Shown here: positions 1 through 63,924 of the stretch, piece by piece
How positions within the stretch are numbered: the first letter of the stretch is position 1
How the letters are laid out: each line of letters begins with the position of its first letter
Origin: an uncultured Planctomycetia bacterium
GTDB taxonomy: Bacteria; Omnitrophota; Gorgyraeia; CAYWPX01
Direction: 5' to 3'
Assembly: GCA_964460615.1 (NCBI GenBank)
Contig: CAYWPX010000001.1
Location: 120,073-184,072, forward strand
DNA: 64,000 bases
The notes under the pieces: generated by a model
Seen by the model: the letters and a program-made list of their open reading frames with translations, nothing else
Databases searched by the model: none
What the model was told of the DNA's origin: nothing
Position numbers and translations under genes: made by a program

Positions 1-566
1 TTGGTTTTTGCATGGTTTTTAAAAGAAATCTGACAAAGTTGATCGGGCTTTTTGACGAAGTTTACGGGATGGGTAATTTTGAGGACACCGATTATTCTAG
101 ACGGGTCCAGTCGTACGGTTTTAAGTGCGCCATGGCCAAAGGGTCATACGTATGGCACAAACAGAATACATCGTTCAATCTCATAAAAAGTTTCAACAGT
201 TCTTTTAACAAGAACAAAAAGATATTTGAGAGCCGTTGGGGTAAGATAGAGAGGATCTTATTTATTTATTCTAGCCCAAATAGTGCTGTTCAAAAAGAAA
301 TGCAGAACCTGGCGGAAGATTATTTGAGTAAAGGCCACTGGGTGACAATATTTAAGTCCAAGAGCATCATTTTAAGCACCTTCAAAGATCATTCAGGCCT
401 CAAGATCAAGAATTTTTCACCGGGGGGAATTTTTGTCAGATCAGCTTTAACCGTACTTTTTAAGAAAAAGAAATTTACCAGTATATATGTAGACAGCGTT
501 CCAAAATTTAAGTTGCTGAGTATTCTTAAACCGATTCACAAAGGAAATGTTGAACGGTTAACCTAA
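1..566 (+). CDS. glycosyltransferase family 2-like protein, 3' portion (5' end upstream of window)
   Basis: Reading frame is open to the window edge with no start seen; DEVYGMGNFEDTDYSRR resembles the acidic EDxD...R region of GT2 enzymes; long C-terminal tail of unknown function. Confidence 0.45.
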   Translation, partial: GFCMVFKRNLTKLIGLFDEVYGMGNFEDTDYSRRVQSYGFKCAMAKGSYVWHKQNTSFNLIKSFNSSFNKNKKIFESRWGKIERILFIYSSPNSAVQKEMQNLAEDYLSKGHWVTIFKSKSIILSTFKDHSGLKIKNFSPGGIFVRSALTVLFKKKKFTSIYVDSVPKFKLLSILKPIHKGNVERLT

Positions 567-577
567 AAAGGATTATC

Positions 578-1342
578 ATGGAAAAGATCTCATTAAGTGT
601 TGTAGTGCTTACCAGAAACGAGGAGGACAATATAGCAAGATGCCTCAAAAGCGCGTCTTTTGCCGATGAGGTGATAGTGGTGGATGACGGTAGCACAGAC
701 AAGACTATCGAAATTGCCTCCAAGCTTGCCACAAAAATAGTAGAGAGAAAAATGGATGTCGAAGGTACTCACAGAAATTATGCTTATTCATTAGCCAAGA
801 ATAAATGGGTGCTCAGCCTTGACGCTGATGAAGAGATCAGTGTTGATCTAAAAAATGAAATAATCGAGACTCTTTCCAAGGAAACACCGCATGTTGTTTT
901 TTCCATGCCTATTAAAACTTATATTGGAAAGAGATGGATACAGCATGGCGGGTGGTATCCGGCAGGCAAAGACAGGCTTTTTCTTAAGGGCGAATTTAAG
1001 TACGAAGATGTAGGAGTGCACCCAAGGCCGATTTATAAAGGTACCTGCGGGCATCTTACAAAAGATATAGTCCATTATTCTTACAATGATTTTCATGATT
1101 TTTTTGTAAGCCTTAATAATCAGACTACCCAGGAAGCAAAAAAATGGATCCAGGACAAGCGAAAGATCAACGGCCCTAAAATATTTTATAAAATGTTTGA
1201 AAGGTTTTTTAAGTCATTTTTTCTTAAGAAAGGCTACAAGGATGGGTTATTGGGATTTATGGTCTCGTATTCAGGCAGCCTTTATCAATTATATACCTAT
1301 GCAAAGTACTGGGAAATGAAGAGTAATATGGAGAACAAATAA
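578..1342 (+). CDS. glycosyltransferase family 2
   Basis: N-terminal LSVVVLTRNEEDNIARCL...VIVVDDGSTDKT is the classic GT2 signature; stop overlaps next start (TAATG). Confidence 0.85.
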   Translation: MEKISLSVVVLTRNEEDNIARCLKSASFADEVIVVDDGSTDKTIEIASKLATKIVERKMDVEGTHRNYAYSLAKNKWVLSLDADEEISVDLKNEIIETLSKETPHVVFSMPIKTYIGKRWIQHGGWYPAGKDRLFLKGEFKYEDVGVHPRPIYKGTCGHLTKDIVHYSYNDFHDFFVSLNNQTTQEAKKWIQDKRKINGPKIFYKMFERFFKSFFLKKGYKDGLLGFMVSYSGSLYQLYTYAKYWEMKSNMENK

Positions 1343-3051
1343 TGAAAATTCTCGGAATAGGCGCACCGTTCTTTTTGCATGATCCGGCAAGTGCCTTAAT
1401 AATAGATGGTGAGGTTGTTGCGGCTGTAGAAGAAGAGAGATTTAACCGCAAAAAACATGCTATTGGGTGTTTATCTGTTGAGTCAACCAAGTTTTGTCTG
1501 AAAAAAGCTGGTATTAAACCAAGTGATGTTGAAGTTGTTGCATTCCCTTGGTCAGCCAAAGCATACTTTATGGGGATGTGGCCGCACTTTTTTGACACAT
1601 TGAAAGATGAGCCGTCAAGAGCGTTTAAGGGAATAAAAAACTTTACTAAAAAGAAGAAGGAGATTTCAACAAAACTTAAAATGACCCTTAAGGGCGCCGG
1701 TATTGATCCTGATAAAGTTGAAATCAGGTATGTTGAACACCACTTGGCGCATGCTTCAAGCGCTTATCATCTTTCGGGATTCAAGGATTCGGCTATTATG
1801 ACCATGGATGGATCCGGTGAATTTGCTACGACTGTATTTTGGGAGGGAGTGAACGGAAAAATAAGAAAAATAAAAGAGTTCTATCTTCCCAATTCCTTGG
1901 GGAGGTTTTATTCGACAGTTACTGCATATCTGGGTTTTCAGGCAAATGACGGGGAATATAAGTTGATGGGCATGGCGCCGTACGGTGATCCATCAAAAGT
2001 AGATATATCCAAAGTTATTTCGTATGATAAGGCAGGCTACAAAACCAATCCTGATTATGTCTGGGTAACCAGATCCAGGAGATATGATGTAAATAATATT
2101 TTTTCCAAACACATGGTCAAGATGTGGGGCCCGCCAAGGACCGGTGATGGGCTTACGGAGCCGTATATCCATATTGCTGCAGCTACTCAGAAAACTCTTG
2201 AGGATGTAACACTAGGCCTTATTGATACATATCTTGGCGATATTCTTAAGAAGAATGGCGGGAATCTCTCTTTTGCAGGAGGTTGCGCTTTAAATGTAAG
2301 TCTGAACAGAAAACTCCTTGGCCATCCGCTTATAAAACATCTATACGTTCAGCCTGCTTCAAGCGATGCCGGCACTCCTCTAGGGGCGGCTACATATGTA
2401 GCAAGCGAACTCGGAGAAAAGCTTAAGCCAATGACTCATGTATACCTTGGCCCCAGCTACACAAATGATGAGATAAAAAAAGAGCTTGATAAGATAAAAG
2501 TAAAATATACCTATCACGAAGATATAGAAGAGGTAACCGCCCAGCTGCTTAGCCAGGGCCAGATAGTAGCATGGTTCCAGGGGGAGATGGAGTATGGCCC
2601 AAGAGCCCTTGGCAATCGTTCTATACTGGGGAATCCTACAACCAAAGGCGTAAGTGACAGGATCAATGAGATAATAAAGTTCCGTGAGAACTGGAGGCCT
2701 TTCTGTCCGTCAATGCTTCCTGAATACGCAAAAGAGATCCTTGATTCGGATCATCCGGCACTTCACATGACTTTAAGCTTTAAGATAAGCGATAAATGGA
2801 AATCAAAGATACCCGAAGCGGTGCATGTAGACGGCACAATAAGACCGCAGGTGGTAGACCCTAAAACAAATCCCAAATACTACAAGCTTTTAAGCATCTT
2901 CAATAAAAAAACAGGAATACCTGTATTAATAAATACATCTTTGAATAGACGCGGCGAGCCAATGGTATGCTCCCCCAAGGATGCGATCAATATGTTCTAT
3001 GGAAGCGGTTTAGAGAACCTGGTAATGGGTAATTATTTATTGAGGAAGTAG
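1342..3051 (+). CDS. carbamoyltransferase, NodU/CmcH family (paralog 1)
   Basis: 569 aa; MKILGIGAPFFLHDPASALIIDGEVVAAVEEERFNR N-terminus and HHLAHASSAYHLSGF motif typical of NodU/CmcH O-carbamoyltransferases; SD GGAGAA upstream. Confidence 0.85.
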   Translation: MKILGIGAPFFLHDPASALIIDGEVVAAVEEERFNRKKHAIGCLSVESTKFCLKKAGIKPSDVEVVAFPWSAKAYFMGMWPHFFDTLKDEPSRAFKGIKNFTKKKKEISTKLKMTLKGAGIDPDKVEIRYVEHHLAHASSAYHLSGFKDSAIMTMDGSGEFATTVFWEGVNGKIRKIKEFYLPNSLGRFYSTVTAYLGFQANDGEYKLMGMAPYGDPSKVDISKVISYDKAGYKTNPDYVWVTRSRRYDVNNIFSKHMVKMWGPPRTGDGLTEPYIHIAAATQKTLEDVTLGLIDTYLGDILKKNGGNLSFAGGCALNVSLNRKLLGHPLIKHLYVQPASSDAGTPLGAATYVASELGEKLKPMTHVYLGPSYTNDEIKKELDKIKVKYTYHEDIEEVTAQLLSQGQIVAWFQGEMEYGPRALGNRSILGNPTTKGVSDRINEIIKFRENWRPFCPSMLPEYAKEILDSDHPALHMTLSFKISDKWKSKIPEAVHVDGTIRPQVVDPKTNPKYYKLLSIFNKKTGIPVLINTSLNRRGEPMVCSPKDAINMFYGSGLENLVMGNYLLRK

Positions 3052-3094
3052 AATCTGTTAACGCGTCCCTCGTGTAAACGTTAAAAAATTCCTC

Positions 3095-3123
3095 GCCTGC
3101 CTATAGCAGGCAAGAAATTTTTA
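3095..3123 (+). terminator. possible intrinsic terminator between the carbamoyltransferase paralogs
   Basis: Hairpin GCCTGC-ctata-GCAGGC followed by aagaaattttt. Confidence 0.4.
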
Positions 3124-3202
3124 GCACACACTTCGGGATAATTCGCACCTATAACTTAGTTTCCCATCGGGTCACCTAAGTTATGTGCTCATTAAGGAAA
3201 TA

Positions 3203-4909
3203 ATGATTATATTAGGAGTTGGAACACCTTTTTCGCATGACCCAGGAGCAGCGCTTTTGATCGATGGTGAGTTGATAGCCGCGGCTGATGAAGAGCGTTT
3301 TTCCAGGAATAAACACGCCATAAACGAATTCCCTGTTAAATCCATAAAATTTTGTCTCGCCAAAGCCGGCATCAAAGCAAGCGATGTTGAGATAGTGGCA
3401 TATCCCTGGAGCTATGCTGCCTACGAAGGAAAGATGTGGGATTTTTTTAAAAGAACCTGGTTAAGCAGGCCGAGCGATGCTTTTAAGTCTATTATAAAGG
3501 CTAAATCAAGGCATAAAGATAAGATTAAAAGACTGAATAATATCCTTTCCAGTTCAGGTATAAATCCCGATAAAGTAAAAAAATATTTTGTAGAACACCA
3601 CTTGGCGCATGCTTCAAGCGCTTACCATCTTTCGGGATTCAAGGATTCGGCTATTATGACCATGGATGCTGCCGGCGAATTTACATCAACGATGTTTGCC
3701 GAGGGTAAAGAAGGAAAGATAGCTAAAATTAAAGAATTTATATATCCGGACTCATTGGGGATGTTTTATTCGGTAGTTACAGAATATCTCGGTTTTGAGA
3801 TCAATGACGGGGAATATAAAGTAATGGGTATGGCGCCTTACGGCAATCCTGAAAAAGTGGATTTCAGTGATGTTATTAAATTTGATAAATCTGCTTACCA
3901 TGTGAATGATTTATTCACCTATTCAAGAAAAAGACATCGATATGAATCCGGCAAAATGTTCTCCAAACACATGGTCAAGATGTGGGGCCCGCCAAGGACC
4001 GGTGATGGGCTTACGGAGCCGTATATCCATATTGCTGCAGCTACTCAGAAAACTCTTGAGGATGTAACACTAGGCCTTATTGATACATATCTTGGCGATA
4101 TTCTTAAGAAGAATGGCGGGAATCTCTCTTTTGCAGGAGGTTGCGCTTTAAATGTAAGTCTGAACAGAAAACTCCTTGGCCATCCGCTTATAAAACATCT
4201 ATACGTTCAGCCTGCTTCAAGCGATGCCGGCACTCCTCTAGGGGCGGCTACATATGTAGCAAGCGAACTCGGAGAAAAGCTTAAGCCAATGACTCATGTA
4301 TACCTTGGCCCCAGCTACACAAATGATGAGATAAAAAAAGAGCTTGATAAGATAAAAGTAAAATATACCTATCACGAAGATATAGAAGAGGTAACCGCCC
4401 AGCTGCTTAGCCAGGGCCAGATAGTAGCATGGTTCCAGGGGGAGATGGAGTATGGCCCAAGAGCCCTTGGCAATCGTTCTATACTGGGGAATCCTACAAC
4501 CAAAGGCGTAAGTGACAGGATCAATGAGATAATAAAGTTCCGTGAGAACTGGAGGCCTTTCTGTCCGTCAATGCTTCCTGAATACGCAAAAGAGATCCTT
4601 GATTCGGATCATCCGGCACTTCACATGACTTTAAGCTTTAAGATAAGCGATAAATGGAAATCAAAGATACCCGAAGCGGTGCATGTAGACGGCACAATAA
4701 GACCGCAGGTGGTAGACCCTAAAACAAATCCCAAATACTACAAGCTTTTAAGCATCTTCAATAAAAAAACAGGAATACCTGTATTAATAAATACATCTTT
4801 GAATAGACGCGGCGAGCCAATGGTATGCTCCCCCAAGGATGCGATCAATATGTTCTATGGAAGCGGTTTAGAGAACCTGGTAATGGGTAATTATTTATTG
4901 AGGAAATAG
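3203..4909 (+). CDS. carbamoyltransferase, NodU/CmcH family (paralog 2)
   Basis: N-terminus MIILGVGTPFSHDPGAALLIDGE aligns with paralog 1; last ~315 aa identical to paralog 1. ORF track starts at GTG 3185; ATG 3203 chosen by alignment with paralog 1. Confidence 0.85.
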   Translation: MIILGVGTPFSHDPGAALLIDGELIAAADEERFSRNKHAINEFPVKSIKFCLAKAGIKASDVEIVAYPWSYAAYEGKMWDFFKRTWLSRPSDAFKSIIKAKSRHKDKIKRLNNILSSSGINPDKVKKYFVEHHLAHASSAYHLSGFKDSAIMTMDAAGEFTSTMFAEGKEGKIAKIKEFIYPDSLGMFYSVVTEYLGFEINDGEYKVMGMAPYGNPEKVDFSDVIKFDKSAYHVNDLFTYSRKRHRYESGKMFSKHMVKMWGPPRTGDGLTEPYIHIAAATQKTLEDVTLGLIDTYLGDILKKNGGNLSFAGGCALNVSLNRKLLGHPLIKHLYVQPASSDAGTPLGAATYVASELGEKLKPMTHVYLGPSYTNDEIKKELDKIKVKYTYHEDIEEVTAQLLSQGQIVAWFQGEMEYGPRALGNRSILGNPTTKGVSDRINEIIKFRENWRPFCPSMLPEYAKEILDSDHPALHMTLSFKISDKWKSKIPEAVHVDGTIRPQVVDPKTNPKYYKLLSIFNKKTGIPVLINTSLNRRGEPMVCSPKDAINMFYGSGLENLVMGNYLLRK

Positions 4910-4934
4910 TTTTAGCATAAATATAAGGATCTAG

Positions 4935-5696
4935 ATGAATACTTGTCCGGTATGCAACAATTCGGTTTGGAAAATTATTTATAAGATTGATAAATGGGAT
5001 ATCAAGGTTTGCCCAACTTGCAAATTTTCTGTGATAGACCCTTTACCATCTGATGAAACAAGAAAAGATGATTATTCCAAAGACAAGGTCCTTGAAAGAA
5101 ATTTTAAAAAGAAAAACGTCTTCCAAAAGTTTTCTAGATTACTTAAGGGCACATTTGCTAGATTTACTAAGCGCAATAAAAGTAAAATATTTTTTGATAA
5201 TCTGGCCAAATCCCTTCCGGAGGGTTCCAAGGTGCTAGATATTGGATGCGGGGATGGAAGCTTTTTAAAGCTGGCTAGTTCAAGATTTATTTGTAGCGGC
5301 ATTGAAATATCCGAATACCTGGCTAATATTGCGAAGACTAATAAAGAGCTTAGGGTGATTACCGGAAATTTTCTTGAATTAGGGTTGGGTGAGGAAAAAT
5401 TTGACGGGATAACATTAATCTCATTGCTTGAACATATTTCCGATCCATCCGGGGCAATAACTAAATGTTTTGATTTATTGAATAATAACGGGATCCTGCT
5501 TTTAAAGACAGTCAACTTTAATTCATTAAACAGGATTATGAGGGGAAGGTCGTGGGTTGGATTTCGTCCGCCGGATCATGTGGTTTATTTTACTCCGGAA
5601 AACATCTCAATGCTATTAAAGAAAATCGGGTTTAAAAGTATCAAAGTGTCTTCATGGCCTTTAAATGACAGCATGTATATTAAAGCCATTAAGTAA
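4935..5696 (+). CDS. class I SAM-dependent methyltransferase with N-terminal CxxC...CxxC zinc-ribbon-like motif
   Basis: VLDIGCGDGSFL (motif I) plus LLLK motif; CPVCNN...CPTCKF at N-terminus. Confidence 0.75.
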   Translation: MNTCPVCNNSVWKIIYKIDKWDIKVCPTCKFSVIDPLPSDETRKDDYSKDKVLERNFKKKNVFQKFSRLLKGTFARFTKRNKSKIFFDNLAKSLPEGSKVLDIGCGDGSFLKLASSRFICSGIEISEYLANIAKTNKELRVITGNFLELGLGEEKFDGITLISLLEHISDPSGAITKCFDLLNNNGILLLKTVNFNSLNRIMRGRSWVGFRPPDHVVYFTPENISMLLKKIGFKSIKVSSWPLNDSMYIKAIK

Positions 5697-5740
5697 TGCC
5701 TATATCAATGCGCCTATAACCAAACATATTAAGGAAAATC

Positions 5741-6436
5741 ATGGAAAAAAATATTCTATCAGTTGTTATGCCGGTGTATAATGAGAAAGATACTATTCTC
5801 AAAATCGTAGACAGGGTCCTTAAGCTGGATTGCCTTAAAGAGCTTATTGTTGTTGATGACAAATCTACTGACGGGACCAGGGAGATCTTGCAGAATGCTA
5901 GATTTGATAACCGTGTTAAATTGTTACTTCATGATAAAAACACTGGTAAGGGCGGGGCATTAAGGACCGGCTTTAAAGCGGTTACAGGCTTGGTTGTAGC
6001 TATTCAGGATGCTGATCTTGAATATGATCCTAAAGAGCTGATGCTTTTGACGAGACCCATTGAAGAGGGAGTGGCAGATGTGGTTTATGGTTCAAGGTTA
6101 TCAGGGGGAATGCCTCAGAGGGTGCATCTGTTCTGGCATAAGATAGGTAACATGCTCATAACTTTCATCATGGACTTTTTGTTTAATACCACACTGACTG
6201 ATGTAGAGACATGTTATAAGGTTTTTAAGTCAGAGTATCTTAAAAATATGACAATTAAGGAGAATAGATTCGGTATCGACCCTGAGATTACAGCCAAGCT
6301 TCTTAAACAGAACCCAAGGATATATGAAGTTCCGATCTCATATTACGGAAGAAGTTTCAGTGAAGGCAAAAAGATAACCTGGCTTAACGGCTTTGAGGTT
6401 ATCTGGGCGATAATAAAGTATAGATTTATAAACTAG
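5741..6436 (+). CDS. GT2 polyprenol-phosphate sugar synthase (dolichol-phosphate mannosyltransferase-like)
   Basis: LSVVMPVYNEKDTILKIVDRV...LIVVDDKSTDGTREIL; 231 aa size and motif arrangement match DPM1/ArnC-like enzymes. Confidence 0.8.
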   Translation: MEKNILSVVMPVYNEKDTILKIVDRVLKLDCLKELIVVDDKSTDGTREILQNARFDNRVKLLLHDKNTGKGGALRTGFKAVTGLVVAIQDADLEYDPKELMLLTRPIEEGVADVVYGSRLSGGMPQRVHLFWHKIGNMLITFIMDFLFNTTLTDVETCYKVFKSEYLKNMTIKENRFGIDPEITAKLLKQNPRIYEVPISYYGRSFSEGKKITWLNGFEVIWAIIKYRFIN

Positions 6437-6448
6437 GCAGAATTACTG

Positions 6449-6862
6449 ATGAAAATAGACTTGCAGAAAATCATTAATTATAAGTTAATTCTTTTGGTTT
6501 GGATTATTATCTGGCTGCTATTTTTTGTCAGAGGATTTGTAAAAGCGGACTATAAGATTTTTAAGGCCACCATAGGTAAAAGTACCGAAGAGAAGAAAGC
6601 GTTTTCTATGACGCCGGGCCTCTATAAATTTATAGAATTCTGCGATAAAAATACGCCAAAAGATTCCAGTTTTAAATTTGAGTACAATAAGCAGCTTCTC
6701 GATCCGGTTGAAGAAGTAAGGATGATGTATTATCTTTATCCGAGAATTATTAAGGATGAACCGAGGTATATTTTTGTATTCGGGGTGCCCGGGTATAGGA
6801 TCGAAAGCTACAGGCTGGTAAATAGGCTGGATGAAAACTCGTTTATTTTAGAAAAAGAGTAG
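6449..6862 (+). CDS. hypothetical membrane-anchored protein
   Basis: 137-aa ORF with one N-terminal hydrophobic helix (LILLVWIIIWLLFFV); tightly packed between two glycosylation genes. Confidence 0.4.
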   Translation: MKIDLQKIINYKLILLVWIIIWLLFFVRGFVKADYKIFKATIGKSTEEKKAFSMTPGLYKFIEFCDKNTPKDSSFKFEYNKQLLDPVEEVRMMYYLYPRIIKDEPRYIFVFGVPGYRIESYRLVNRLDENSFILEKE

Positions 6863-6884
6863 TTCTCCAAAGGAATAAGGAATA

Positions 6885-8267
6885 ATGGATAATTTATTTT
6901 CAATAATAAGATTGATCATAGGCCTAGGCCTGACAGTATTTATTGGTTACGTCTTATTAAGCGCGATCTTCAGGAAAAACCGTGAGGGCCTTAATTATTC
7001 GGAACGAATTTTTGTTTCATTCGGCCTTGGGATAATACTGCTTACTATGGAGCAGTTTTTTTATTCAATATTAAAGATCGAGTGGTCTATTTTTAACATT
7101 ATTGTTCCATGGGTAGCCTTATTTATTGCGAATTTATTTCTCACAAGAAATGAAGTTAAGGTTTTGAAAGCTGTTCCTAAGGAAAAAATAAGATTAAGCC
7201 TTTTAGAGAAGTTTTTGATATCCATTATTGTTATGGAGGTTATTTATGTGTTCTTCAAGGCATTCAGTTTCCCGCTCAGCGACTATGATGGATTGGCAAT
7301 ATACGGGATCAAAGCAAAATCTTTCTATTTAAATGGGACGGTTTTTACCGATATGTTCACCGAGAAGATTTTCATACCGGCCCATCCGGATTATCCTCTA
7401 CTTTTACCTTTAGCTGAAAGCTGGGTCTACATATTTCTCGGGAGTCTGAATGATTATCTGGTAAAGATATTGTTCCCGGTCTATTATGTAGGGCTTCTGG
7501 TCATATTTTTCAGTGTAATGTTAAATTTTTTCAAGAGGCGCGAGGCTATCCTTTTTACTTTTTTTGTTGCAACAGTTTCCCAGCTTAGGAATTTTGGTTA
7601 TTTCTGTTATGCGGAAATGCCTCTGATATTTTATTATACAGCCAGTTTTCTTTACCTATTCATGTGGATCAAGAAGGAAAAGTTATCTTTTCTTATACTC
7701 TCAGCCTTAATGGCATTTGGCGCTCTTTGGTCAAAGAACGAAGGAAGTTTGTTATTTCTGGTAAATCTGGCCGTTCTTTTGATAGCAATATTTGATAAAA
7801 AACTGAATTTAAAAAAAGCTTTGGTCTGTTTTTTCGCTTATTTAGTCACAGTAGTGGTACTATTTACGCCTTGGGTCATCGTAAAGACTTGTTTTAACCT
7901 CACTAATGATGTTATTAATAAAGATACCTTGAAAGTTTCTTTGATAGCCAGTAATCTTGATAGGATAGGGCCGATTTTGTATGAATACCAGAAACATATC
8001 TTCGGCCCGAAAAAATGGAATATTGTCTGGATACTGATTATCATGACATTTATACTTAAATTCAAAAATCTTCTTAAGCCGGATCAAAAATATTTTACGA
8101 TCGCACTTATTTTATGTTTTTTAGGTTATACAATGACCTATTTTATTACTCCGCAAAATCTGACATGGCATTTGTCAACCAGCGCCAGCAGGATCATCCT
8201 TCATTTTTTGCCGATAGGACTTTTCTGGGTAGCATTATGTACGAGAAAGGAATTAGATGATTTCTAG
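6885..8267 (+). CDS. polytopic membrane protein, possible GT-C-type glycosyltransferase
   Basis: 460 aa with about 10-12 hydrophobic segments; adjacent to a polyprenol-P sugar synthase as in ArnC/ArnT-like pairs. Family not confirmed. Confidence 0.55.
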   Translation: MDNLFSIIRLIIGLGLTVFIGYVLLSAIFRKNREGLNYSERIFVSFGLGIILLTMEQFFYSILKIEWSIFNIIVPWVALFIANLFLTRNEVKVLKAVPKEKIRLSLLEKFLISIIVMEVIYVFFKAFSFPLSDYDGLAIYGIKAKSFYLNGTVFTDMFTEKIFIPAHPDYPLLLPLAESWVYIFLGSLNDYLVKILFPVYYVGLLVIFFSVMLNFFKRREAILFTFFVATVSQLRNFGYFCYAEMPLIFYYTASFLYLFMWIKKEKLSFLILSALMAFGALWSKNEGSLLFLVNLAVLLIAIFDKKLNLKKALVCFFAYLVTVVVLFTPWVIVKTCFNLTNDVINKDTLKVSLIASNLDRIGPILYEYQKHIFGPKKWNIVWILIIMTFILKFKNLLKPDQKYFTIALILCFLGYTMTYFITPQNLTWHLSTSASRIILHFLPIGLFWVALCTRKELDDF

Positions 8268-8835
8268 AGATAAAGTCGTTTTTATAGACAGGGACGGTGT
8301 TATTAATAAAGATCCGGAGGGCTGGGCGAAGAACGGATACGTAACCAATCCCGGAGATTTTATTTTTTTACCTGATGTAATGGATTCTTTGAAAAAGCTG
8401 ACAGAGAATGGGTACAAGATAATATTTATTTCCAATCAGGCCGGCGTCGGTAAAGGTTTATTTACCGAAGAAGAGCTTGATAAGGTAAATGATTATATGC
8501 TTAAAGAGATAGAGATGAATGGCGGCAGGATCTTCGGGACTTTTTATTGTACGCACAAAAAAGAGGATAATTGCGAATGCAGAAAACCCAAATCCGGGCT
8601 TATCCGGATGGCCATGTCTAATATAAATACCGATATTGAGAAAACATATTTTATCGGTGATACCGAAAGGGATGTCGTAGCGGCTAAAAACTTCGGTTTA
8701 AGGGCGATCATAGTTTTGTCGGGAAAGACTAAAATCGATGATATTAAAGACTGGGCTAACAAGCCAGATGAGATCATGAAAGATCTGAAGGAAGCAGTTG
8801 ACTTTATTGTCCACAAAGGAGTTTCTAATGAATAA
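8257..8835 (+). CDS. gmhB: HAD-family phosphatase, GmhB-like (D,D-heptose 1,7-bisphosphate phosphatase / histidinol-phosphatase family)
   Basis: VVFIDRDGVIN motif I, CTHKKEDNCECRKPKSGL zinc-binding loop, FIGDTERD motif. Confidence 0.7.
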   Translation: MISRDKVVFIDRDGVINKDPEGWAKNGYVTNPGDFIFLPDVMDSLKKLTENGYKIIFISNQAGVGKGLFTEEELDKVNDYMLKEIEMNGGRIFGTFYCTHKKEDNCECRKPKSGLIRMAMSNINTDIEKTYFIGDTERDVVAAKNFGLRAIIVLSGKTKIDDIKDWANKPDEIMKDLKEAVDFIVHKGVSNE

Positions 8836-9958
8836 GAAAATCTTTGTAATCCACGCTTCAGCCGGAGGCGGCCACAGGAAAGCTGCAACAAGTCTAATCA
8901 AGGCTTTTGAGGAGCTTGGCTTTAGGCATGATATCACTCTTATTGATTCGCTTGATTATACTAATAATTCTTTTAAGAAGTCCTATCAAAAAACATATCT
9001 ATTAGCCATACAGAAACTTCAGAATCTCTGGGGGTTTTTCTACTATCTCTTGGATAATGCGGTCTTTTACAAGTTTTTTGTATCATTTGCCAGGCGCATC
9101 GTTAATCAGCTGAATACCAAGCCTTTAAGGGACCTTATAATAAAAGAAAAGCCGGATCTGATCCTGTGTACGCATTTTCTTGCGCCAGAAGTTATTGGTA
9201 ATATGAAAAATAAGGGCCTGATAGACACGAAGCTTGTGACCGTGATCACGGATTTTAAGCCTCACACATTCTGGGTTCATAGCGGGATAGATTATTACAT
9301 AGTGGCCGATCAGTATACTAAAGACGAGCTGGTTAAAAGGGGCGTTTCCGGTGATAAGATCCTCGTATATGGCATACCTATCGAAAAGGCTTTTTCTATC
9401 GACTATGACAAAAATGAGCTTAGGCAAAAATTCGGGATGAAGGATATCTTTACTGTCCTTATCGGAAGCGGCGGTTGGGGCGTGGGGCCCATAGAAAAAC
9501 TGGTAGATATTTTAGGCCAAATGGACGAGGAATTACAGGTGATGGTTGTTTGCGGTGAGAATGATATTCTTTGTAATAACATATCAAGATACGCTTCAGA
9601 TTTTAAAAACTTCGTAAAGGTTTTCGGTTATGTCAATAACATGTATGAGCTTATGTCTATTGCTGATGTCATAGTGACTAAATCAGGCGGACTTACTACA
9701 TCTGAATCATTGGCCAAGGACCTTCCGATGATTATTATAGCCCCTATCCCTGGCCAGGAGACAAGGAATTGCGATTTTATATTAAATTCCAAAGCAGGTT
9801 TTAAGATCAATAATCCTGAAGACGTAAGAGATAGGATCAAAGAACTAATAAATTCCAAGGAGCTTTTGAATAAATTAAAAGATAATATTTCGAAGATAAG
9901 AAAACCCAATTCCAGCCTTGATATTGCAAGGTTCTGTTTAAAGTTAATAGGTAACTAA
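8828..9958 (+). CDS. MGDG-synthase-like glycosyltransferase (GT28-like, diacylglycerol glycosyltransferase family)
   Basis: MNKKIFVIHASAGGGHRKAATSL N-terminus typical of the MGDG synthase family; start set at second ATG 8828 with AAGGAG SD (track start 8798). Confidence 0.7.
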   Translation: MNKKIFVIHASAGGGHRKAATSLIKAFEELGFRHDITLIDSLDYTNNSFKKSYQKTYLLAIQKLQNLWGFFYYLLDNAVFYKFFVSFARRIVNQLNTKPLRDLIIKEKPDLILCTHFLAPEVIGNMKNKGLIDTKLVTVITDFKPHTFWVHSGIDYYIVADQYTKDELVKRGVSGDKILVYGIPIEKAFSIDYDKNELRQKFGMKDIFTVLIGSGGWGVGPIEKLVDILGQMDEELQVMVVCGENDILCNNISRYASDFKNFVKVFGYVNNMYELMSIADVIVTKSGGLTTSESLAKDLPMIIIAPIPGQETRNCDFILNSKAGFKINNPEDVRDRIKELINSKELLNKLKDNISKIRKPNSSLDIARFCLKLIGN

Positions 9959-10654
9959 ATGAAAAATCCTGATTCAGAATTAAAAGAAATACTAAAAAAA
10001 GTCAAAGACATCATAAGTACCGAAAAAAATTCGGGCGTTGAAGAATTTCCGTCTATAAGAAAGTTTTTAGGCGCTGTCACTTCGTCGAATAACGAAAAAG
10101 AATCGTTAATGAATGACCTTAAGGTAAAAGCCTTATCCTGCAAGAATTGTGTATTGCACAAGTCCAGGCGAAATGTTGTTTTCGGGGTTGGTAATTTGAA
10201 TACCAAGCTTATGTTTGTAGGCGAGGCGCCGGGAGCGGATGAAGACAGGGAAGGATTGCCTTTTGTAGGAAGGGCGGGAGAGCTTCTTACTAAGATCATA
10301 GAATCAATCGGTTTTAAAAGGACCGAGATCTACATAGGGAATATCCTTAAATGCCGTCCGCCGGAAAATCGCTTCCCTGACCCCGGAGAGGTGAGTAAAT
10401 GTATCCATATTATCAGAAAACAGATCGAAATAATAAGGCCTGACCTTATCTGCACGCTGGGGAAATGCGCTACTCAGAGCCTTCTAAATAGTGATCAGCC
10501 AATCTCGAGACTCAGGGGAAATTTTCAGGATTATAACGGCATAAAAGTCATGCCGACATATCACCCGGCCTATTTATTAAGAAGCCCATCTGAAAAACGG
10601 GTTGTTTGGGAAGACATGAAGAAGATCAAAAGAGAACTTTCCTTAAAATCCTAA
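9959..10654 (+). CDS. uracil-DNA glycosylase, family 4
   Basis: CKNC...GEAPGADEDREGLPFVGRAGELL...CRPP motifs of family-4 UDG. Confidence 0.85.
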   Translation: MKNPDSELKEILKKVKDIISTEKNSGVEEFPSIRKFLGAVTSSNNEKESLMNDLKVKALSCKNCVLHKSRRNVVFGVGNLNTKLMFVGEAPGADEDREGLPFVGRAGELLTKIIESIGFKRTEIYIGNILKCRPPENRFPDPGEVSKCIHIIRKQIEIIRPDLICTLGKCATQSLLNSDQPISRLRGNFQDYNGIKVMPTYHPAYLLRSPSEKRVVWEDMKKIKRELSLKS

Positions 10655-12738: not shown

Positions 12739-13362
12739 TTAGATCTCAATCTTAAAATCGTTAGGTGTTTGAGTTTCGCTATAGTTTTTCTTGATAGCTC
12801 CGAGTGCATCAAGATTTCTCAGGCCTTTTTCCGCATCATGGTCGTGAGGGTGGACCTCCATCAGCTTCTTGTAGGATGCTCTCGCCCTGTCGTAATCGCC
12901 TTTATCTATATATAGCTTGCCCAGATTCTTTAATGCGGTCATATTGTTCTGCTCAACGGCATATATCTCTTCGAAGCAGTATATCGCCGAATCCCTTAAT
13001 TCCATATATAAAAATGTTTTCCCTTGTTCCAACAGCGCCCAGATGCTGAACGGGTTATTGGCAAGTATCTTTTCGTATTCGAGAATAGCAAGACTCGGTT
13101 CATTCCTGAGTTTGAATATCAATGCTTTTATGAAATAGCCGATAGATATGATATTCGAAATCGCCTCCGATAATTTACTCGGAGGTGCCCCGATATATTT
13201 TTTTCGTTGAGCAACCCTTAAAAAGTGTCTTGCCTCAGCAAATTCCTGATTTATGGCAATAATACCCGTAAGGAGCTCAATAGCATAGTCGTAGTTGTCC
13301 CTCTTTAATGAATTAAGGGCTTTTTCGTAATTTTCTCTCATTTCCCTTGGTATTTGTTCCAT
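12739..13362 (-). CDS. tetratricopeptide-repeat protein
   Basis: Only substantial minus-strand gene; TPR-like helical repeats; start set at MEQIPREM with AGAGGA SD (track ORF extends to 13548). Confidence 0.55.
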   Translation of the reverse strand: MEQIPREMRENYEKALNSLKRDNYDYAIELLTGIIAINQEFAEARHFLRVAQRKKYIGAPPSKLSEAISNIISIGYFIKALIFKLRNEPSLAILEYEKILANNPFSIWALLEQGKTFLYMELRDSAIYCFEEIYAVEQNNMTALKNLGKLYIDKGDYDRARASYKKLMEVHPHDHDAEKGLRNLDALGAIKKNYSETQTPNDFKIEI

Positions 13363-13523
13363 GTCATATCCTCTTTTTATATATTTTATTATAGGGCTGT
13401 CTAATTTTAATGTCAATATAATAATAACTAAAATTTGTTTGAAGAATTGCATTAATATGCTAAAATTATCCCTGGCCGGATGATCGTGCAGACATTTTTT
13501 TGATTGATTACTAAGGAGTAATA

Positions 13524-14450
13524 GTGAGAATAGTATTTTTCGGTACATCGGGGTTTAGTGTAAGGGCGCTCAAAGAACTTCTGAAAAGTTCTCATGAGAT
13601 AGTAGCCGTTGTTACCAGGCCCGACATAAAAAGCGGCAGGTTTTTGAAAGTCTCTGAAAATCCCGTCAAGATCTTTTCCAAAAATAACAACCTTAAAATA
13701 TTCCAATTTGCGAAGCTTGATGATGACGCGGCGGCCAAACTTAATGAGCTTAGGCCCGACCTATTTGTAGTAGTCTCTTACGGTAGAATACTTACAAAGG
13801 ATTTTTTGTCTATCCCTAGGTTGTATTCAGTGAACCTCCATGCTTCGCTTTTGCCAAAATACCGGGGTGCCGGGCCTATCAACTGGGCCATTATAAACGG
13901 GGAGAAGACGACTGGGGCTACGGTTATGAAGATGAATGAACTGATGGATGAAGGGGATATTATTTCCAGTGTGGAAGTTCCTATCGATGAAAAAGATAAT
14001 TCTATTACCCTGTCGGATAAAATTGCCGAGGCGGGCAGCATGCTATTGGTTGATACTTGTGATAAGATAGCCGGTAACGCTGATATCAAATTTGTTTCGC
14101 AGGATCAAGTACTTGCTACGATCGCGCCCAAACTGAAAAAGAGCGACGGGTTTATTGACTGGAATAAGGATGCGTATGAGATAAGCAATCTGGTAAGGGG
14201 GCTATTACCATGGCCATGCGCTTATACTCATTATAAAGGAAAGCTTTTAAAGGTATTCGACGCTGTGCCGGTACCTATAGGTACTGAATTCAAGAATGGA
14301 GAAGTTGTCGAATCAGGCCCCAAAGGGATTTTAATAAAATGCGCCAAAGACGGTTTATTGATAAGAGAGTTACAGCTTGAAGGAAAAAAAAGGATGTCAT
14401 CAAAAGACTTTTTAATAGGTAACAAGGTGGCTCCCGGTGATATGTTTTGA
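13524..14450 (+). CDS. fmt: methionyl-tRNA formyltransferase
   Basis: MRIVFFGTSGFSV..., SYGRIL, NLHASLLPKYRGAGPINWAII motifs; GTG start with AAGGAG SD. Confidence 0.9.
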   Translation: MRIVFFGTSGFSVRALKELLKSSHEIVAVVTRPDIKSGRFLKVSENPVKIFSKNNNLKIFQFAKLDDDAAAKLNELRPDLFVVVSYGRILTKDFLSIPRLYSVNLHASLLPKYRGAGPINWAIINGEKTTGATVMKMNELMDEGDIISSVEVPIDEKDNSITLSDKIAEAGSMLLVDTCDKIAGNADIKFVSQDQVLATIAPKLKKSDGFIDWNKDAYEISNLVRGLLPWPCAYTHYKGKLLKVFDAVPVPIGTEFKNGEVVESGPKGILIKCAKDGLLIRELQLEGKKRMSSKDFLIGNKVAPGDMF

Positions 14451-15812: not shown

Positions 15813-16829
15813 ATGCCCGAGTTAAGAAAAGATCCTGTGGTAGGCAGATGGGTTATTATAGCAACCGAGCGCGCCAAAAGGCCTCAGGATTTTTCAAAAG
15901 AAGATTCAAATATTGACGATTCAGCATGTCCTTTCTGCGAGGGGAAAGAGGCATTGACCCCGCATGAGATTTTTTCATTAAGGAGCCAAGGAAATACGCC
16001 CGGATGGGATGTAAGGGTAGTTCCCAGCATCAATCCGCTTTTAGTTATTGAAGGTAAACTCAATAGGCGGCCAAAAGGCATGTATGATCTTATGGATGCT
16101 ATTGGCGCACATGAAATAGTGGTAGAAACCCCTAAACATATACACAACATGGCTGATCTTGAAGAGTCACAGATAGTAAAGGTATTTGATGTTTACCTTA
16201 ATAGGTTATCGGACTTGGAGAAAGACCATAGGTTTAAGTATGTTCTGATTTTCAAGAATTACGGGGTTGCCGCAGGGGCCGGGCCGATAAAACATTCCAG
16301 AAGCCAGCTTATTGCTACCCCGGTTAACCCAAAAAGAGTAAAAGAAGAGCTGATGGGTTCAAGGCGCTATTTTGAATATAAAGAGAGATGTGTATTCTGC
16401 GATATTATCAGGCAGGAGATAGCGGATGAGAGCAGGGTTGTTTTGGAGTCGGAAGAGTTCGTTGTGATCGCGCCGTTCGCTTCGAGATTTCCCTTTGAGC
16501 TTAATATCCTTCCTAAGAAACATTCGGCTGATTTTACAAAGATCAGCCACTCAGAGAAACTGGATCTTGCCAGGGTGCTTAAAAATACTCTGATGAAACT
16601 CAAGATCGCTCTCAATGACCCTCCTTATAATTTTGTACTTCATTCTGCTCCTTTCAGGGGATCAAGAAAACAGGGCTATTGGAAGACGGTTGACAGCGAT
16701 TATCATTGGCATATCGAAATAATGCCCAGACTTACAAGCGTAGCTGGGTTTGAATGGGGATCGGGGGTTTATATTAACCCGACTCCTCCTGAAGAAGCTG
16801 CTAAATACCTTAAGGAATTGGGGATTTAA
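15813..16829 (+). CDS. GalT-like HIT-superfamily nucleotidyltransferase/phosphorylase paralog 1 (active-site variant HSRSQ)
   Basis: CPFCEG zinc motif, second CVFCDII motif, YHWHIEI; canonical H-P-H-x-Q replaced by H-S-R-S-Q. Confidence 0.8.
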   Translation: MPELRKDPVVGRWVIIATERAKRPQDFSKEDSNIDDSACPFCEGKEALTPHEIFSLRSQGNTPGWDVRVVPSINPLLVIEGKLNRRPKGMYDLMDAIGAHEIVVETPKHIHNMADLEESQIVKVFDVYLNRLSDLEKDHRFKYVLIFKNYGVAAGAGPIKHSRSQLIATPVNPKRVKEELMGSRRYFEYKERCVFCDIIRQEIADESRVVLESEEFVVIAPFASRFPFELNILPKKHSADFTKISHSEKLDLARVLKNTLMKLKIALNDPPYNFVLHSAPFRGSRKQGYWKTVDSDYHWHIEIMPRLTSVAGFEWGSGVYINPTPPEEAAKYLKELGI

Positions 16830-16951: not shown

Positions 16952-17968
16952 ATGAATCAGTTAAGACGTGACGTTGTTACCGGCAGATGGATAATAATAA
17001 ATGTTGATGAAGATCAGACTCATTTTGATTTCTTGACTGAGCAGAGAGAGAAAAAAGGCGGGACATGCCCCTTTTGTCCCGGCAATGAAAGAATGACCTC
17101 GCATGAAATAACTGCATACGGAAGAAAAGCATATGTCCCAAATTCAGCAGATTGGACCTTGAGGGTGGTCCCAAATAAATTCCCGGCGCTAAAAATTGAA
17201 GGCGAGATAGGTAAGATCGGCGTAGGGCTTTATGATATGTCTAACGGCATAGGTGCGCATGAAGTTATAGTTGAATCTCCGGATCATAATAAGGAATTAT
17301 CAGATCTTGACATAGAAAGAGTTGAGGATGTTATCTGGTCTTATAGTGACAGATCTTTGGATCTTAGGAAAGACCCCAGATTTAAATATATACTGATCTT
17401 CAAAAATTACGGAGAACCGGCGGGGGCATCCTTAGAGCATCCGCATTCACAGGTTATCGCGCTTCCAATAGTCCCCAGCCGCGTAACTGACGAGCTGGAG
17501 GGTGCAAAAAAATATTTCGATTATAAAGAGAGATGTATCTTTTGCGATATTATTCATCAGGATATGCAGGATAAAGAACTCATTGTTACCGACAATGAGC
17601 ATTTTTTGTCATTCTGCCCTTTTGTTCCGAGATTCCCATATGAGACATGGATAATACCAAAACAGCATTCACCTGATTTTGGCTACATAACAAAAACCGA
17701 AGTCGAGAGTTTAGCCAAGATACTTAAAGAGACGCTTCAAAGAATAAAAAATCTGTTGCAAGATCCTTCATATAACTTTATAATCCATACTGAGCCTCTT
17801 AATGGCGAGGGTTCTATGTATAAGGAAAGTTACCATTGGCACATTGAAATAATCCCAAGGCTGACCAAAACAGCGGGGTTTGAATGGGGAAGCGGGTTTT
17901 ATATAAACCCGATCTCTCCTGAATATGCGGCTAAGACGTTGAGAGATGTTAAGCTGCTGAAAGAATAA
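16952..17968 (+). CDS. GalT-like HIT-superfamily nucleotidyltransferase (galactose-1-phosphate uridylyltransferase family) paralog 2
   Basis: CPFCPG, canonical EHPHSQ active-site motif, CIFCDII, YHWHIEI. Confidence 0.8.
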   Translation: MNQLRRDVVTGRWIIINVDEDQTHFDFLTEQREKKGGTCPFCPGNERMTSHEITAYGRKAYVPNSADWTLRVVPNKFPALKIEGEIGKIGVGLYDMSNGIGAHEVIVESPDHNKELSDLDIERVEDVIWSYSDRSLDLRKDPRFKYILIFKNYGEPAGASLEHPHSQVIALPIVPSRVTDELEGAKKYFDYKERCIFCDIIHQDMQDKELIVTDNEHFLSFCPFVPRFPYETWIIPKQHSPDFGYITKTEVESLAKILKETLQRIKNLLQDPSYNFIIHTEPLNGEGSMYKESYHWHIEIIPRLTKTAGFEWGSGFYINPISPEYAAKTLRDVKLLKE

Positions 17969-61974: not shown

Positions 61975-62002
61975 AAACGTAAGTTAATTTGGAGGTGGTA
62001 AT

Positions 62003-62047
62003 ATGCAAAACCTCGCGTTAAAAGTAGCTGGATTTGTTTTTGGGTTA
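62003..62047 (+). pseudogene. truncated 5' copy of the small membrane-protein gene
   Basis: ATGCAAAACCTCGCGTTAAAAGTAGCTGGATTTGTTTTTGGGTTA with GGAGGTG SD matches the 5' end of 62111 and 63736; frame stops after 26 codons. Confidence 0.5.
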
Positions 62048-62110
62048 GAAGTAAAAAACGGGTCACACCTATTTATTTGAAATTACTATAGAAAACCGGG
62101 AGGTTCAACC

Positions 62111-62296
62111 ATGCAAGACATCGCGTTAAAAGTAGCTGGATTTGTTTTTGGGTTAGTGGCTATATTACATCTTTTGAGAGTGTTATTTAAAGTAAAGTTT
62201 ACGGCAAATAATATTGTAATTCCTCTATGGCTAAGTGTAGTTGCTTCGATAGTGGCGCTGTTGCTGGCGCTTTTTATGTTCGCGTGTTTGCAATAG
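62111..62296 (+). CDS. small membrane protein, two predicted TM helices (copy 1)
   Basis: 61 aa; paralog of 63736-63924; C-terminal 24 aa identical between copies. Confidence 0.5.
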   Translation: MQDIALKVAGFVFGLVAILHLLRVLFKVKFTANNIVIPLWLSVVASIVALLLALFMFACLQ

Positions 62297-63651: not shown

Positions 63652-63735
63652 ATTCTAAAAATTAATTAAGCAATAAAAGTGGTGAGTAATAATAAGGGAA
63701 AAGGGGACGCTTCTATTTAAGTTGAAGGCACAACC

Positions 63736-63924
63736 ATGCAAAACCTCGCACTAAAAGTAGCTGGATGTATATTTGTTATAGTGGCTATTATGCAGCTTTT
63801 GAGAGTGCTATTTAAGGTAAAGATTGTGGTTAATGATAATATTATTGTTCCTATATGGCTTAGCGTGGTGGCTTCGATAGTGGCGTTGTTACTTGCGCTT
63901 TTTATGTTCGCGTGTTTGCAATAG
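63736..63924 (+). CDS. small membrane protein, two predicted TM helices (copy 2)
   Basis: 62 aa; paralog of 62111-62296. Confidence 0.5.
   Translation: MQNLALKVAGCIFVIVAIMQLLRVLFKVKIVVNDNIIVPIWLSVVASIVALLLALFMFACLQ

Follow-up and report, generated by a model that had tools for sequence, protein, structure and literature searches.

Two kinds of described systems come closest to the locus reported here. The first kind comprises the three-component glycosylation systems, namely GtrA/GtrB/Gtr* of Shigella and Salmonella, ArnC/ArnE-F/ArnT, and ORF15/ORF14/ORF12 of C. youngae, the latter being a three-component periplasmic glycosylation system (PMC11127046). In these loci a DPM1/GtrB/ArnC-like GT2 glycosyltransferase is encoded beside a GT-C transferase among surface-glycan genes. 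The second kind is the NodU/CmcH/TobZ family of sugar O-carbamoyltransferases. TobZ (PDB 3VEN and related entries), NovN, GdmN and NodU act on antibiotics or Nod factors, and WapO (PA5005 / PSPTO_4992), a putative carbamoyltransferase of the lipopolysaccharide (LPS) core cluster of Pseudomonas, is credited with the 7-O-carbamoyl group on HepII (PMC8005017). Here we compare with these systems a locus at positions 1-9958 of a 64-kb stretch of metagenomic DNA (contig CAYWPX010000001.1, positions 120,073 to 184,072 of the forward strand; in the following "the window", whose numbering is used for all coordinates). The locus encodes two carbamoyltransferases (CT1 and CT2), a methyltransferase, several glycosyltransferases and a small protein that we call p137.

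The best overall explanation, to which we assign a probability of about 0.55, is that the locus serves an LPS-core-type glycan, which would be built and carbamoylated on the cytoplasmic side and would receive a further sugar from a GT-C enzyme on the periplasmic face, CT1 and CT2 being paralogues that underwent gene conversion. In kind the locus is ordinary: it is a surface-glycan cluster with accessory decorating enzymes, which extends known schemes to a new phylum and overturns nothing. Of moderate interest are a variant three-component module, which has an undescribed small partner and no flippase gene, and the apparently gene-converted, mosaic carbamoyltransferase pair. Statements on function are predictions throughout, while the families, the folds, the synteny, the independence of carbamoyltransferases and methyltransferase, the linkages of the GT-C module and the mosaic paralogues are results of the comparison. 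Omnitrophota, to which the locus belongs, are abundant, mostly uncultured and often ultra-small bacteria, for which the locus provides a concrete, phylum-wide candidate for the genes of LPS-core assembly.

Conserved and variable parts of the locus

Ten tightly packed genes on the + strand make up window 1-9958. They overlap (at 1342/1342, 8257/8267 and 8828/8835) or are separated by 11-44 nucleotides, with a 151-nucleotide spacer between CT1 and CT2 as the sole exception. The features are:

1..566, + strand: 3' part of a GT2 glycosyltransferase gene cut by the window edge; weak C-terminal match to Glyco_tranf_2_3
578..1342, + strand: GT2_254, a soluble GT2 glycosyltransferase of 254 residues with no hydrophobic segments; PF00535, 73 bits
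1342..3051, + strand: carbamoyltransferase CT1, 569 residues, with a Kae1-like N-terminal and a YrdC-like C-terminal domain; PF02543, 183 bits, and PF16861, 226 bits
2104..3047, + strand: copy 1 of a 944-bp block, in CT1 (residues 255-569); zero mismatches to copy 2 at an offset of 1858
3052..3202, + strand: structured spacer between CT1 and CT2 with two hairpins, the first terminator-like, then a T run
3203..4909, + strand: carbamoyltransferase CT2, 568 residues from ATG 3203; PF02543, 173 bits, and PF16861, 226 bits
3962..4905, + strand: copy 2 of the 944-bp block, in CT2; identical to 2104..3047
4935..5696, + strand: class I S-adenosylmethionine (SAM) methyltransferase with an N-terminal CxxC-x18-CxxC zinc ribbon; Methyltransf_23, 83 bits
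5741..6436, + strand: GT2_231, a DPM1/ArnC/GtrB-like GT2 of 231 residues without membrane helix; best matches are polyprenyl-phosphate glycosyltransferases
6449..6862, + strand: p137, 137 residues, single membrane helix and alpha/beta domain of about 100 residues, unannotated family; profile search and structure model
6885..8267, + strand: predicted compact glycosyltransferase of GT-C fold, 460 residues, all-helical; AlphaFold2 model and Foldseek matches
8257..8835, + strand: GmhB-like HAD-IIIA phosphatase, above the cut-offs of TIGR01656 and TIGR01662; 11-nucleotide overlap with the GT-C stop
8828..9958, + strand: monogalactosyldiacylglycerol (MGDG)-synthase/UgtP-like glycosyltransferase of GT28 type, 376 residues from ATG 8828; PF06925, 110 bits

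Domain searches confirmed, at these coordinates and all on the + strand, every gene family that had been named in an initial annotation of the window made from its letters; the p137 gene, the exact 944-bp repeat and the upstream continuation of the locus were absent from that annotation. CT2 most likely starts at ATG 3203 rather than at GTG 3185 of the longest open reading frame (ORF), because MIILGVG then aligns with MKILGIG of CT1 and AAATAATGA is common to both starts. For the MGDG-like gene ATG 8828, not 8798, is the most likely start, since a gene of 376 residues was called on L001, a Logan contig of the same sequencing run.

The upstream continuation was found on L009, a contig from an independent Logan assembly (k=31) of this run (SRR12487046), which is 100% identical to window 1-1764 and adds 6.7 kb upstream. 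In order, it carries genes for a Wzy_C protein (WaaL-type, 65.6 bits), a GT4, a Glyco_transf_9 protein (GT9, 112 bits) and three GT2s, the last being the GT2 at the window edge. The Wzy_C and GT9 genes both lie 3-6 kb upstream of window position 1. For the GT9 protein the nearest models are heptosyltransferase III/II and RfaQ, with scores below their equivalog cut-offs. The edge-cut GT2 is complete on L009 (6252-7274, 340 residues); ORF 12-566 of the window covers its C-terminal 184 residues, and the ATG at 12 is an internal Met. Window 1-9958 is thus the downstream, variable part (3' half) of a probable cell-envelope glycan locus of about 17 kb.

For comparison, one genome per species was scanned with a 30-sequence alignment, which yielded 53 loci. 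All 53 come from Omnitrophota, some third-party annotation records among them being labelled uncultured Planctomycetia, and every organism name attached to the relatives of the GT-C protein (n=113) is Candidatus Omnitrophota. A tblastn search of all locus proteins against the 53 loci gave the recurring order WzyC, GT9 (at times two), GT2s, GT2_254, GT2_231, p137, GT-C, (methyltransferase), HAD, MGDG-like, UDG, PriA, Fmt. The part from HAD to Fmt forms a phylum-wide syntenic block, and in the window the sequence between 9959 and about 60 kb is housekeeping throughout, with UDG, PriA, Fmt and Opp, glycolysis and the pathways of leucine, arginine, lysine and NAD among its contents.

Two GT2 genes frame the part of the locus that varies. 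GT2_254, a core gene of the conserved Omnitrophota locus, has orthologues of 54-66% identity in most related loci, and GT2_231 is 55-83% identical across most of them. We regard the stretch between the two as a variable site for accessory decorating genes; in the window it holds CT1, CT2 and the methyltransferase. Co-occurrence was counted in the 30 loci with 6 kb or more of sequence upstream of the GT-C gene: carbamoyltransferases were found in 7 and the methyltransferase in 6, but both together in 0/30. They are thus best viewed as accessory genes gained independently at the variable site, and the idea of the initial annotation that carbamoyltransferase and methyltransferase form a joint decorating pair was not borne out. 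The locus also marks a clearly delimited site at which carbamoyl, methyl and radical-SAM decorating genes are swapped.

A GT-C module with a small partner protein

The 460-residue protein encoded at 6885-8267 contains 13 partly overlapping hydrophobic stretches in a hydropathy scan. An AlphaFold2 model based on 69 homologues reached a predicted local distance difference test score (pLDDT) of 94.5 and a predicted template modelling score of 0.94. The modelled protein is all-helical and is devoid of the periplasmic globular domain of ArnT, PMT or PglB. When the model was compared with the PDB using Foldseek, the best 27 matches were all GT-C enzymes, with ArnT as the top fold match, and a transporter was rejected as a reading of the protein, the strong fold matches all being GT-C enzymes. 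At the sequence level 51 of the 69 family members match PF13231 (PMT_2; best E 1.4e-13). Family-wide, P130, D135, K284 and R436 are invariant, D135 following helix 106-126, while in a conserved HPDYP motif at 167-171 only P171 is invariant. The model thus predicts a glycosyltransferase of GT-C fold, a class that uses polyprenyl-phosphate-linked sugars on the periplasmic face. An outer-face transferase of a lipid-linked sugar had already been suspected in this membrane protein, and both its fold and the DPM1/ArnC/GtrB-like GT2 encoded two genes upstream speak for it.

This GT2, GT2_231, has its best matches in AglJ (E 1e-34), ArnC, PpgS, PgfS and dolichyl-phosphate hexose transferase and, within the PDB, in Pyrococcus DPMS 5mlz (E 1e-13) and ArnC (E 3e-12). 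It is predicted to be a polyprenyl-phosphate sugar synthase. The genes of GT2_231 and of the GT-C enzyme are 448 nucleotides apart with only p137 between them, an adjacency that is kept in most related loci. The locus therefore resembles the three-component systems in that a DPM1/GtrB/ArnC-like GT2 lies beside a GT-C transferase in a surface-glycan locus, and in that ArnT is the best structural match of the GT-C enzyme. Unlike them it has no GtrA, SMR or MATE gene in the 64 kb, a synthase without membrane helix, a minimal GT-C enzyme without periplasmic globular domain and a conserved single-pass protein, p137, encoded between synthase and transferase. The module here also differs in that a further enzyme belongs to it, in this window the zinc-ribbon SAM methyltransferase and in relatives a B12 radical-SAM enzyme.

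No match was found for p137 in Pfam and NCBIfam. A profile search retrieved 136 homologues in a 90%-identity collection, where every name given was Omnitrophota/Omnitrophica, and 266 representatives at 50% identity; by these searches p137 appears to found a family hitherto unannotated and undescribed. A model built from the database homologues (pLDDT 88.8) consists of a long helix spanning residues 5-32 and, after it, a small alpha/beta domain. W18, W22, F25 and R28, which lie in the helix or at its end, and a YYLYP motif (94-98) show no or almost no variation. Of the 48 loci whose sequence reaches 1.5 kb or more upstream of the GT-C gene, 41 have p137 directly 5' of that gene.

In about 20 of the best 150 representatives the p137 module is the C-terminal part of a fusion. 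Partners are an AglJ/DPM-type GT2 (P0238 and an ORF of locus L022 at 8892-9989), a GtrA_DPMS_TM domain (P0359) and, in other proteins, a signal peptide with a domain of about 170 residues (no Pfam match) and two membrane helices, after which the p137 domain follows. P0381 (listed with P0359), P0317 and P0334 are further examples of fusions. Because the signal-peptide fusions with two transmembrane helices put the p137 domain there, we infer that it is periplasmic. As p137 has a single helix, a GtrA- or SMR-type flippase was rejected as its identity. In two loci (L063 and L064) the p137-fusion gene is preceded by a GT2 gene and followed immediately 3' by that of a GT-C homologue (hhalign probability 100%, E 1e-39). 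A GT2, a modifying enzyme, a p137-domain protein and a GT-C enzyme thus seem to constitute a recurring unit. The cluster in L064 also holds a thiamine-diphosphate enzyme, two HpcH/HpaI aldolases and a HAD phosphatase.

A further parallel is found in humans, where the catalytic dolichol-phosphate-mannose synthase DPM1 has no membrane helix and is tethered by a small membrane protein (DPM1-DPM3). Here as well a DPM1-type GT2 without transmembrane helix is encoded beside a small membrane protein, and fusions of the two exist (L022, P0238). However, p137 combines a single helix with a domain of about 100 residues on the opposite side of the membrane, shows no similarity to DPM3, and is linked to the GT-C gene at least as tightly as to the synthase gene.

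The methyltransferase carries the CPVC...CPTC zinc ribbon that is read directly in the sequence. Nine methyltransferase models match at E <= 0.01, Methyltransf_23 being the best; NodS (PF05401) is absent from these matches and was rejected as its identity. Orthologues (50-60% identity) always adjoin the GT2_231/p137/GT-C module, preceding it in this window and in L002, lying within it in L003 and following it in L007, L016-L018, L022, L029 and L061, and in L064 a zinc-ribbon Methyltransf_23 gene (E 6e-24 to the methyltransferase of the window) lies directly upstream of the p137-fusion gene. The placement suggests an accessory gene of the GT-C module, not a partner of the carbamoyltransferases. 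In about 25 loci a B12-binding radical-SAM enzyme of 460 residues is encoded between GT2_231 and p137 (e.g. L038 8144-9526, L021 8159-9538); its nearest models are P-methyltransferase and HpnJ, with scores below the cut-offs, and nowhere in the window is it encoded. L017 alone has it together with the methyltransferase, such that the two are nearly mutually exclusive and the radical-SAM enzyme probably takes, as a rule, the methyltransferase's place in relatives. The Logan contig L001 starts inside the methyltransferase gene, at window 5389, where there is no repeat within the window; this break could reflect reduced coverage, variation between strains or a repeat located elsewhere in the metagenome.

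A bolder version of the proposal would make p137 a fourth component of lipid-linked periplasmic glycosylation, whose Trp-rich helix and YYLYP domain hand the undecaprenyl-phosphate-linked sugar or the acceptor to the minimal GT-C enzyme, replacing its missing periplasmic domain and possibly a GtrA-type flippase. Together with the methyltransferase or the B12 radical-SAM enzyme this would be a module for adding a methylated sugar throughout the Omnitrophota, perhaps a heptose because the gene of the GmhB-like phosphatase is translationally coupled; separately, the mosaic carbamoyltransferases would be a recombination-prone device for varying surface carbamoylation. We regard this version as speculative and rather unlikely to hold as a whole. 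How GT-C enzymes get their lipid-linked donors could be studied in a tractable minimal system made up of this compact enzyme and its obligate small partner.

Nature of the product

The GmhB-like HAD phosphatase scores 167 bits with PRK08942 (cut-off 178) and 111 bits with TIGR00213 (cut-off 149.6) and has the CxH...CxC motif. In nearly all related loci its gene follows the GT-C gene, or the GT-C and methyltransferase genes. The MGDG-like protein adds to its PF06925 match a GT28 C-terminal domain (35.8 bits) and reaches 237 bits with the UgtP equivalog PRK13609 (cut-off 500); it is tied to the glycan only through the adjacency of its gene. Most probably the locus makes LPS core or a glycan that is ligated to LPS core, because WaaL-like and GT9 heptosyltransferase genes lie upstream and the GmhB-like phosphatase is encoded within it. 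Where the initial annotation had spoken of a surface glycan or glycolipid, the building and decoration of a glycan thus stands, and the same WaaL-like, GT9 and GmhB-like genes point to LPS core as the glycan it had left unspecified.

From these families we propose the following course of events. Soluble GT2, GT4 and GT9 enzymes would build an oligosaccharide on a lipid anchor at the cytoplasmic side, with the GmhB-like phosphatase providing a heptose precursor, and CT1 and CT2 would carbamoylate it there. In a periplasmic branch, suggested by fold, homology and conserved adjacency, GT2_231 would load undecaprenyl phosphate with a sugar despite having no transmembrane helix. The charged lipid would be flipped by a protein encoded outside the window, and the compact GT-C enzyme would move the lipid-linked sugar onto the glycan at the periplasmic face. 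p137 may act as an accessory subunit that binds the lipid donor or the acceptor, or that tethers the synthase. The zinc-ribbon methyltransferase, finally, would methylate the sugar transferred by the GT-C enzyme or its lipid-linked precursor.

Several observations weigh against this proposal. With respect to the periplasmic branch, GT2_231 lacks the membrane helices present in GtrB and ArnC. No flippase gene (GtrA, SMR or MATE) was found in the 64 kb, where a phmmer search with the GtrA domain against the window ORFs came back empty and no polytopic ORFs besides the GT-C enzyme and two Opp permeases are present. Taken alone, the GT-C protein of the window has no PF13231 match at E <= 0.01, and neither this protein nor its family profile matched any PDB entry by sequence. 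With respect to the product, the window contains no genes of the lipid A, ketodeoxyoctulosonate (Kdo) or ADP-heptose pathways, and the GT9 and Wzy_C families also occur outside LPS. To our knowledge no envelope chemistry is known for any Omnitrophota, and we found nothing specific in the literature on their LPS. In relatives a short-chain dehydrogenase/reductase encoded beside the HAD gene looks RmlB/GalE-like; its identification as the heptose epimerase HldD was not supported, and it is absent from the window.

One rival reading is a different envelope polymer. The locus might decorate an O-antigen-like or capsular polysaccharide on undecaprenyl diphosphate, as in Gtr-type seroconversion, or a glycoprotein, as in PMT-like O-glycosylation, rather than a lipid A-core structure. 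However, one or two GT9 heptosyltransferase genes are found in 18 of the 30 loci counted above, and the top fold match of the GT-C enzyme is ArnT. Furthermore, typical O-antigen islands are hypervariable, whereas this locus is chromosomal, is conserved throughout the phylum and lies within a syntenic housekeeping context. We consider another polymer possible, though on the unlikely side.

The genes might also be neighbours by conserved order only and contribute to separate products, e.g. the GT-C module to lipid A, the carbamoyltransferases to a small molecule and the MGDG-like enzyme to a membrane glycolipid. Such a separation would fit the independent coming and going of carbamoyltransferase and methyltransferase, the retention of the MGDG-like and HAD genes in loci where GT2_231 and p137 are absent (L053-L055, L062), and the action of the nearest solved carbamoyltransferases on antibiotics. 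Yet the genes overlap or follow each other closely on a single strand, annotation of the window genes revealed no secondary-metabolite genes near the locus, and in every locus that has carbamoyltransferases these are bordered by glycosyltransferase genes. Separate products therefore appear improbable to us, and we retain a common, LPS-core-type glycan.

The carbamoyltransferase pair and its mosaic structure

The PF02543 and PF16861 scores of CT1 and CT2 compare with Pfam gathering cut-offs of 24 and 27 bits. Their nearest solved relative is TobZ (E 1.6e-94, nearly full length), followed by NovN and GdmN. The metal site of Kae1 type is intact in both (VEHHLAHA versus VQHHLAHA in TobZ), and H133, H134, H137 and D156 are invariant in 8 sequences. 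We therefore assign both proteins to the NodU/CmcH/TobZ family of sugar O-carbamoyltransferases. A HypF-type carbamoyltransferase was rejected, since only Carbam_trans_N and Carbam_trans_C were found, spanning residues 2-569, without acylphosphatase and zinc-finger domains. The call of sugar-type O-carbamoyltransferases in the initial annotation was therefore correct. The alternative it had named, a HypF-like or antibiotic-type family, fails in its first part and is ill-posed in its second, NodU, TobZ, NovN and GdmN being one family. Its analogy with rhizobial NodU and NodS reduces to a likeness at the family level: the NodU equivalog NF041651 gives 157 bits for CT1 and 150 bits for CT2 at a cut-off of 1000, and NodS has no match at E <= 0.01.

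Given the genomic setting, WapO and its core heptose carbamoylation would be a nearer precedent for CT1 and CT2 than NodU. In both cases, compared by setting and not by sequence, a NodU/CmcH-family gene lies among glycosyltransferase genes of LPS-core type, including heptosyltransferases. The two cases differ in that the copies here are two, in tandem and mosaic, and in that WapO is conserved in Pseudomonas whereas the carbamoyltransferase is accessory in Omnitrophota (7/30 loci). With TobZ, NovN, GdmN and NodU the proteins share the two-domain architecture, and their HHxAH motif and Asp align with the Kae1-like domain of TobZ. Those enzymes, however, act on antibiotics or Nod factors, while the putative acceptor here is a glycan sugar. 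Two variable segments (~72-130 and 215-255) differ from all four enzymes and also between CT1 and CT2. Carbamoyl phosphate is presumably made in the host, since ornithine carbamoyltransferase and the arginine pathway are encoded in the window. CT1 and CT2 would convert it with ATP into carbamoyl-AMP in their YrdC-like domains, which are identical, and their Kae1-like domains would then O-carbamoylate a sugar hydroxyl.

The two genes are of strikingly uneven similarity along their length. A position-by-position comparison at offset 1858 shows that 2104-3047 and 3962-4905 agree exactly over 944 bp, from nucleotide 763 to the end of the gene. In a gapped alignment the first 760 nucleotides of CT1 and CT2 are by contrast 55-71% identical per 150-nucleotide block. 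The proteins are 59% identical ahead of residue 255 and 100% identical from there on, such that they have the final third of the Kae1-like domain, the linker and the entire YrdC-like domain in common, while the variable segments fall in the diverged N-terminal part. This divergence of the first 254 residues could direct CT1 and CT2 to two different acceptor positions or sugars. Among the loci only one other tandem pair was found (L023, 6-1628 and 1641-3359). It has an exact internal block of 1044 nucleotides with flanks that are 53-84% identical; the block lies at about nucleotides 450-1400, the first copy being cut by the contig end.

We read CT1 and CT2 as a mosaic of old tandem paralogues, in which the 944-bp block would stem from gene conversion. 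From the second pair the process appears recurrent, and it seems to spare the N-terminal, presumably acceptor-binding part. If the direct repeats recombined with each other, 1858 bp would be lost and CT1 would remain intact, a simple way in which copy number could vary. The half-identical pair would also constitute a natural domain swap that places acceptor specificity in the first ~250 residues of TobZ/NodU-type enzymes.

The tandem arrangement itself appears real, because the unique spacer 3052-3202 joins the end of copy 1 to the start of copy 2. It matches no Rfam family and occurs only once in the window. The RNA fold of 3049-3190 has an energy of -43.9 kcal/mol (z -5.5; 0/200 shuffles as good), and a terminator-like site lies at 3098-3112. 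L009 stops at 1764, the last CT1-unique 31-mer before the first 31-mer in common with CT2 (1735-1766), and therefore both copies were present in the reads of the independent assembly.

Since the source is a metagenome-assembled genome, the tandem pair or its perfect 944-bp identity could have arisen during assembly, from stitched strain variants or collapsed copies. In this vein, the independent k=31 assembly breaks exactly at the first 31-mer common to both copies, as expected for a graph repeat, and the pair of L023, on a contig with a SPAdes-style NODE name, has a perfect block as well. In particular, the 100% identity of the block could have been inflated from about 97-99% by graph collapse in a short-read metagenome assembly, which counts against taking this value literally. 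Bubble collapse, however, merges only near-identical sequence, such that the mosaic would stay even at 97-99%. An assembly artefact, of the pair or of its perfect identity, is improbable, given that the unique 151-nucleotide spacer and the distinct 5' halves need a path from the block end back to its start and hence a true tandem, that strain variants would instead have the upstream GT2 gene in common, that the ORFs of both copies are intact and lack none of the catalytic residues, and that the block borders differ between the two genomes, as fits independent conversion events.

Some minor features were noted downstream of the locus. The only minus-strand gene of the region, 12739-13548, encodes a tetratricopeptide repeat protein and is preceded by a perfect sigma-70 consensus (TTGACA, 17 nucleotides, TATAAT) at 13416-13388 on the - strand. 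At 15813-16829 and 16952-17968 lie tandem paralogues of a GalT/HIT-like protein (GalP_UDP_tr_C, DUF4921, DUF4931), which are conserved in other Omnitrophota loci, 3' of Fmt and a CBS protein. Three copies of a small-protein gene, either entire or of its start only, lie in the AT-rich end of the window and share 74-93% nucleotide identity (61991-62048, 62099-62296 and 63724-63924). The first copy is truncated, and the encoded protein of 61-62 residues (MQDIALKVAGFVFG...) is very hydrophobic.

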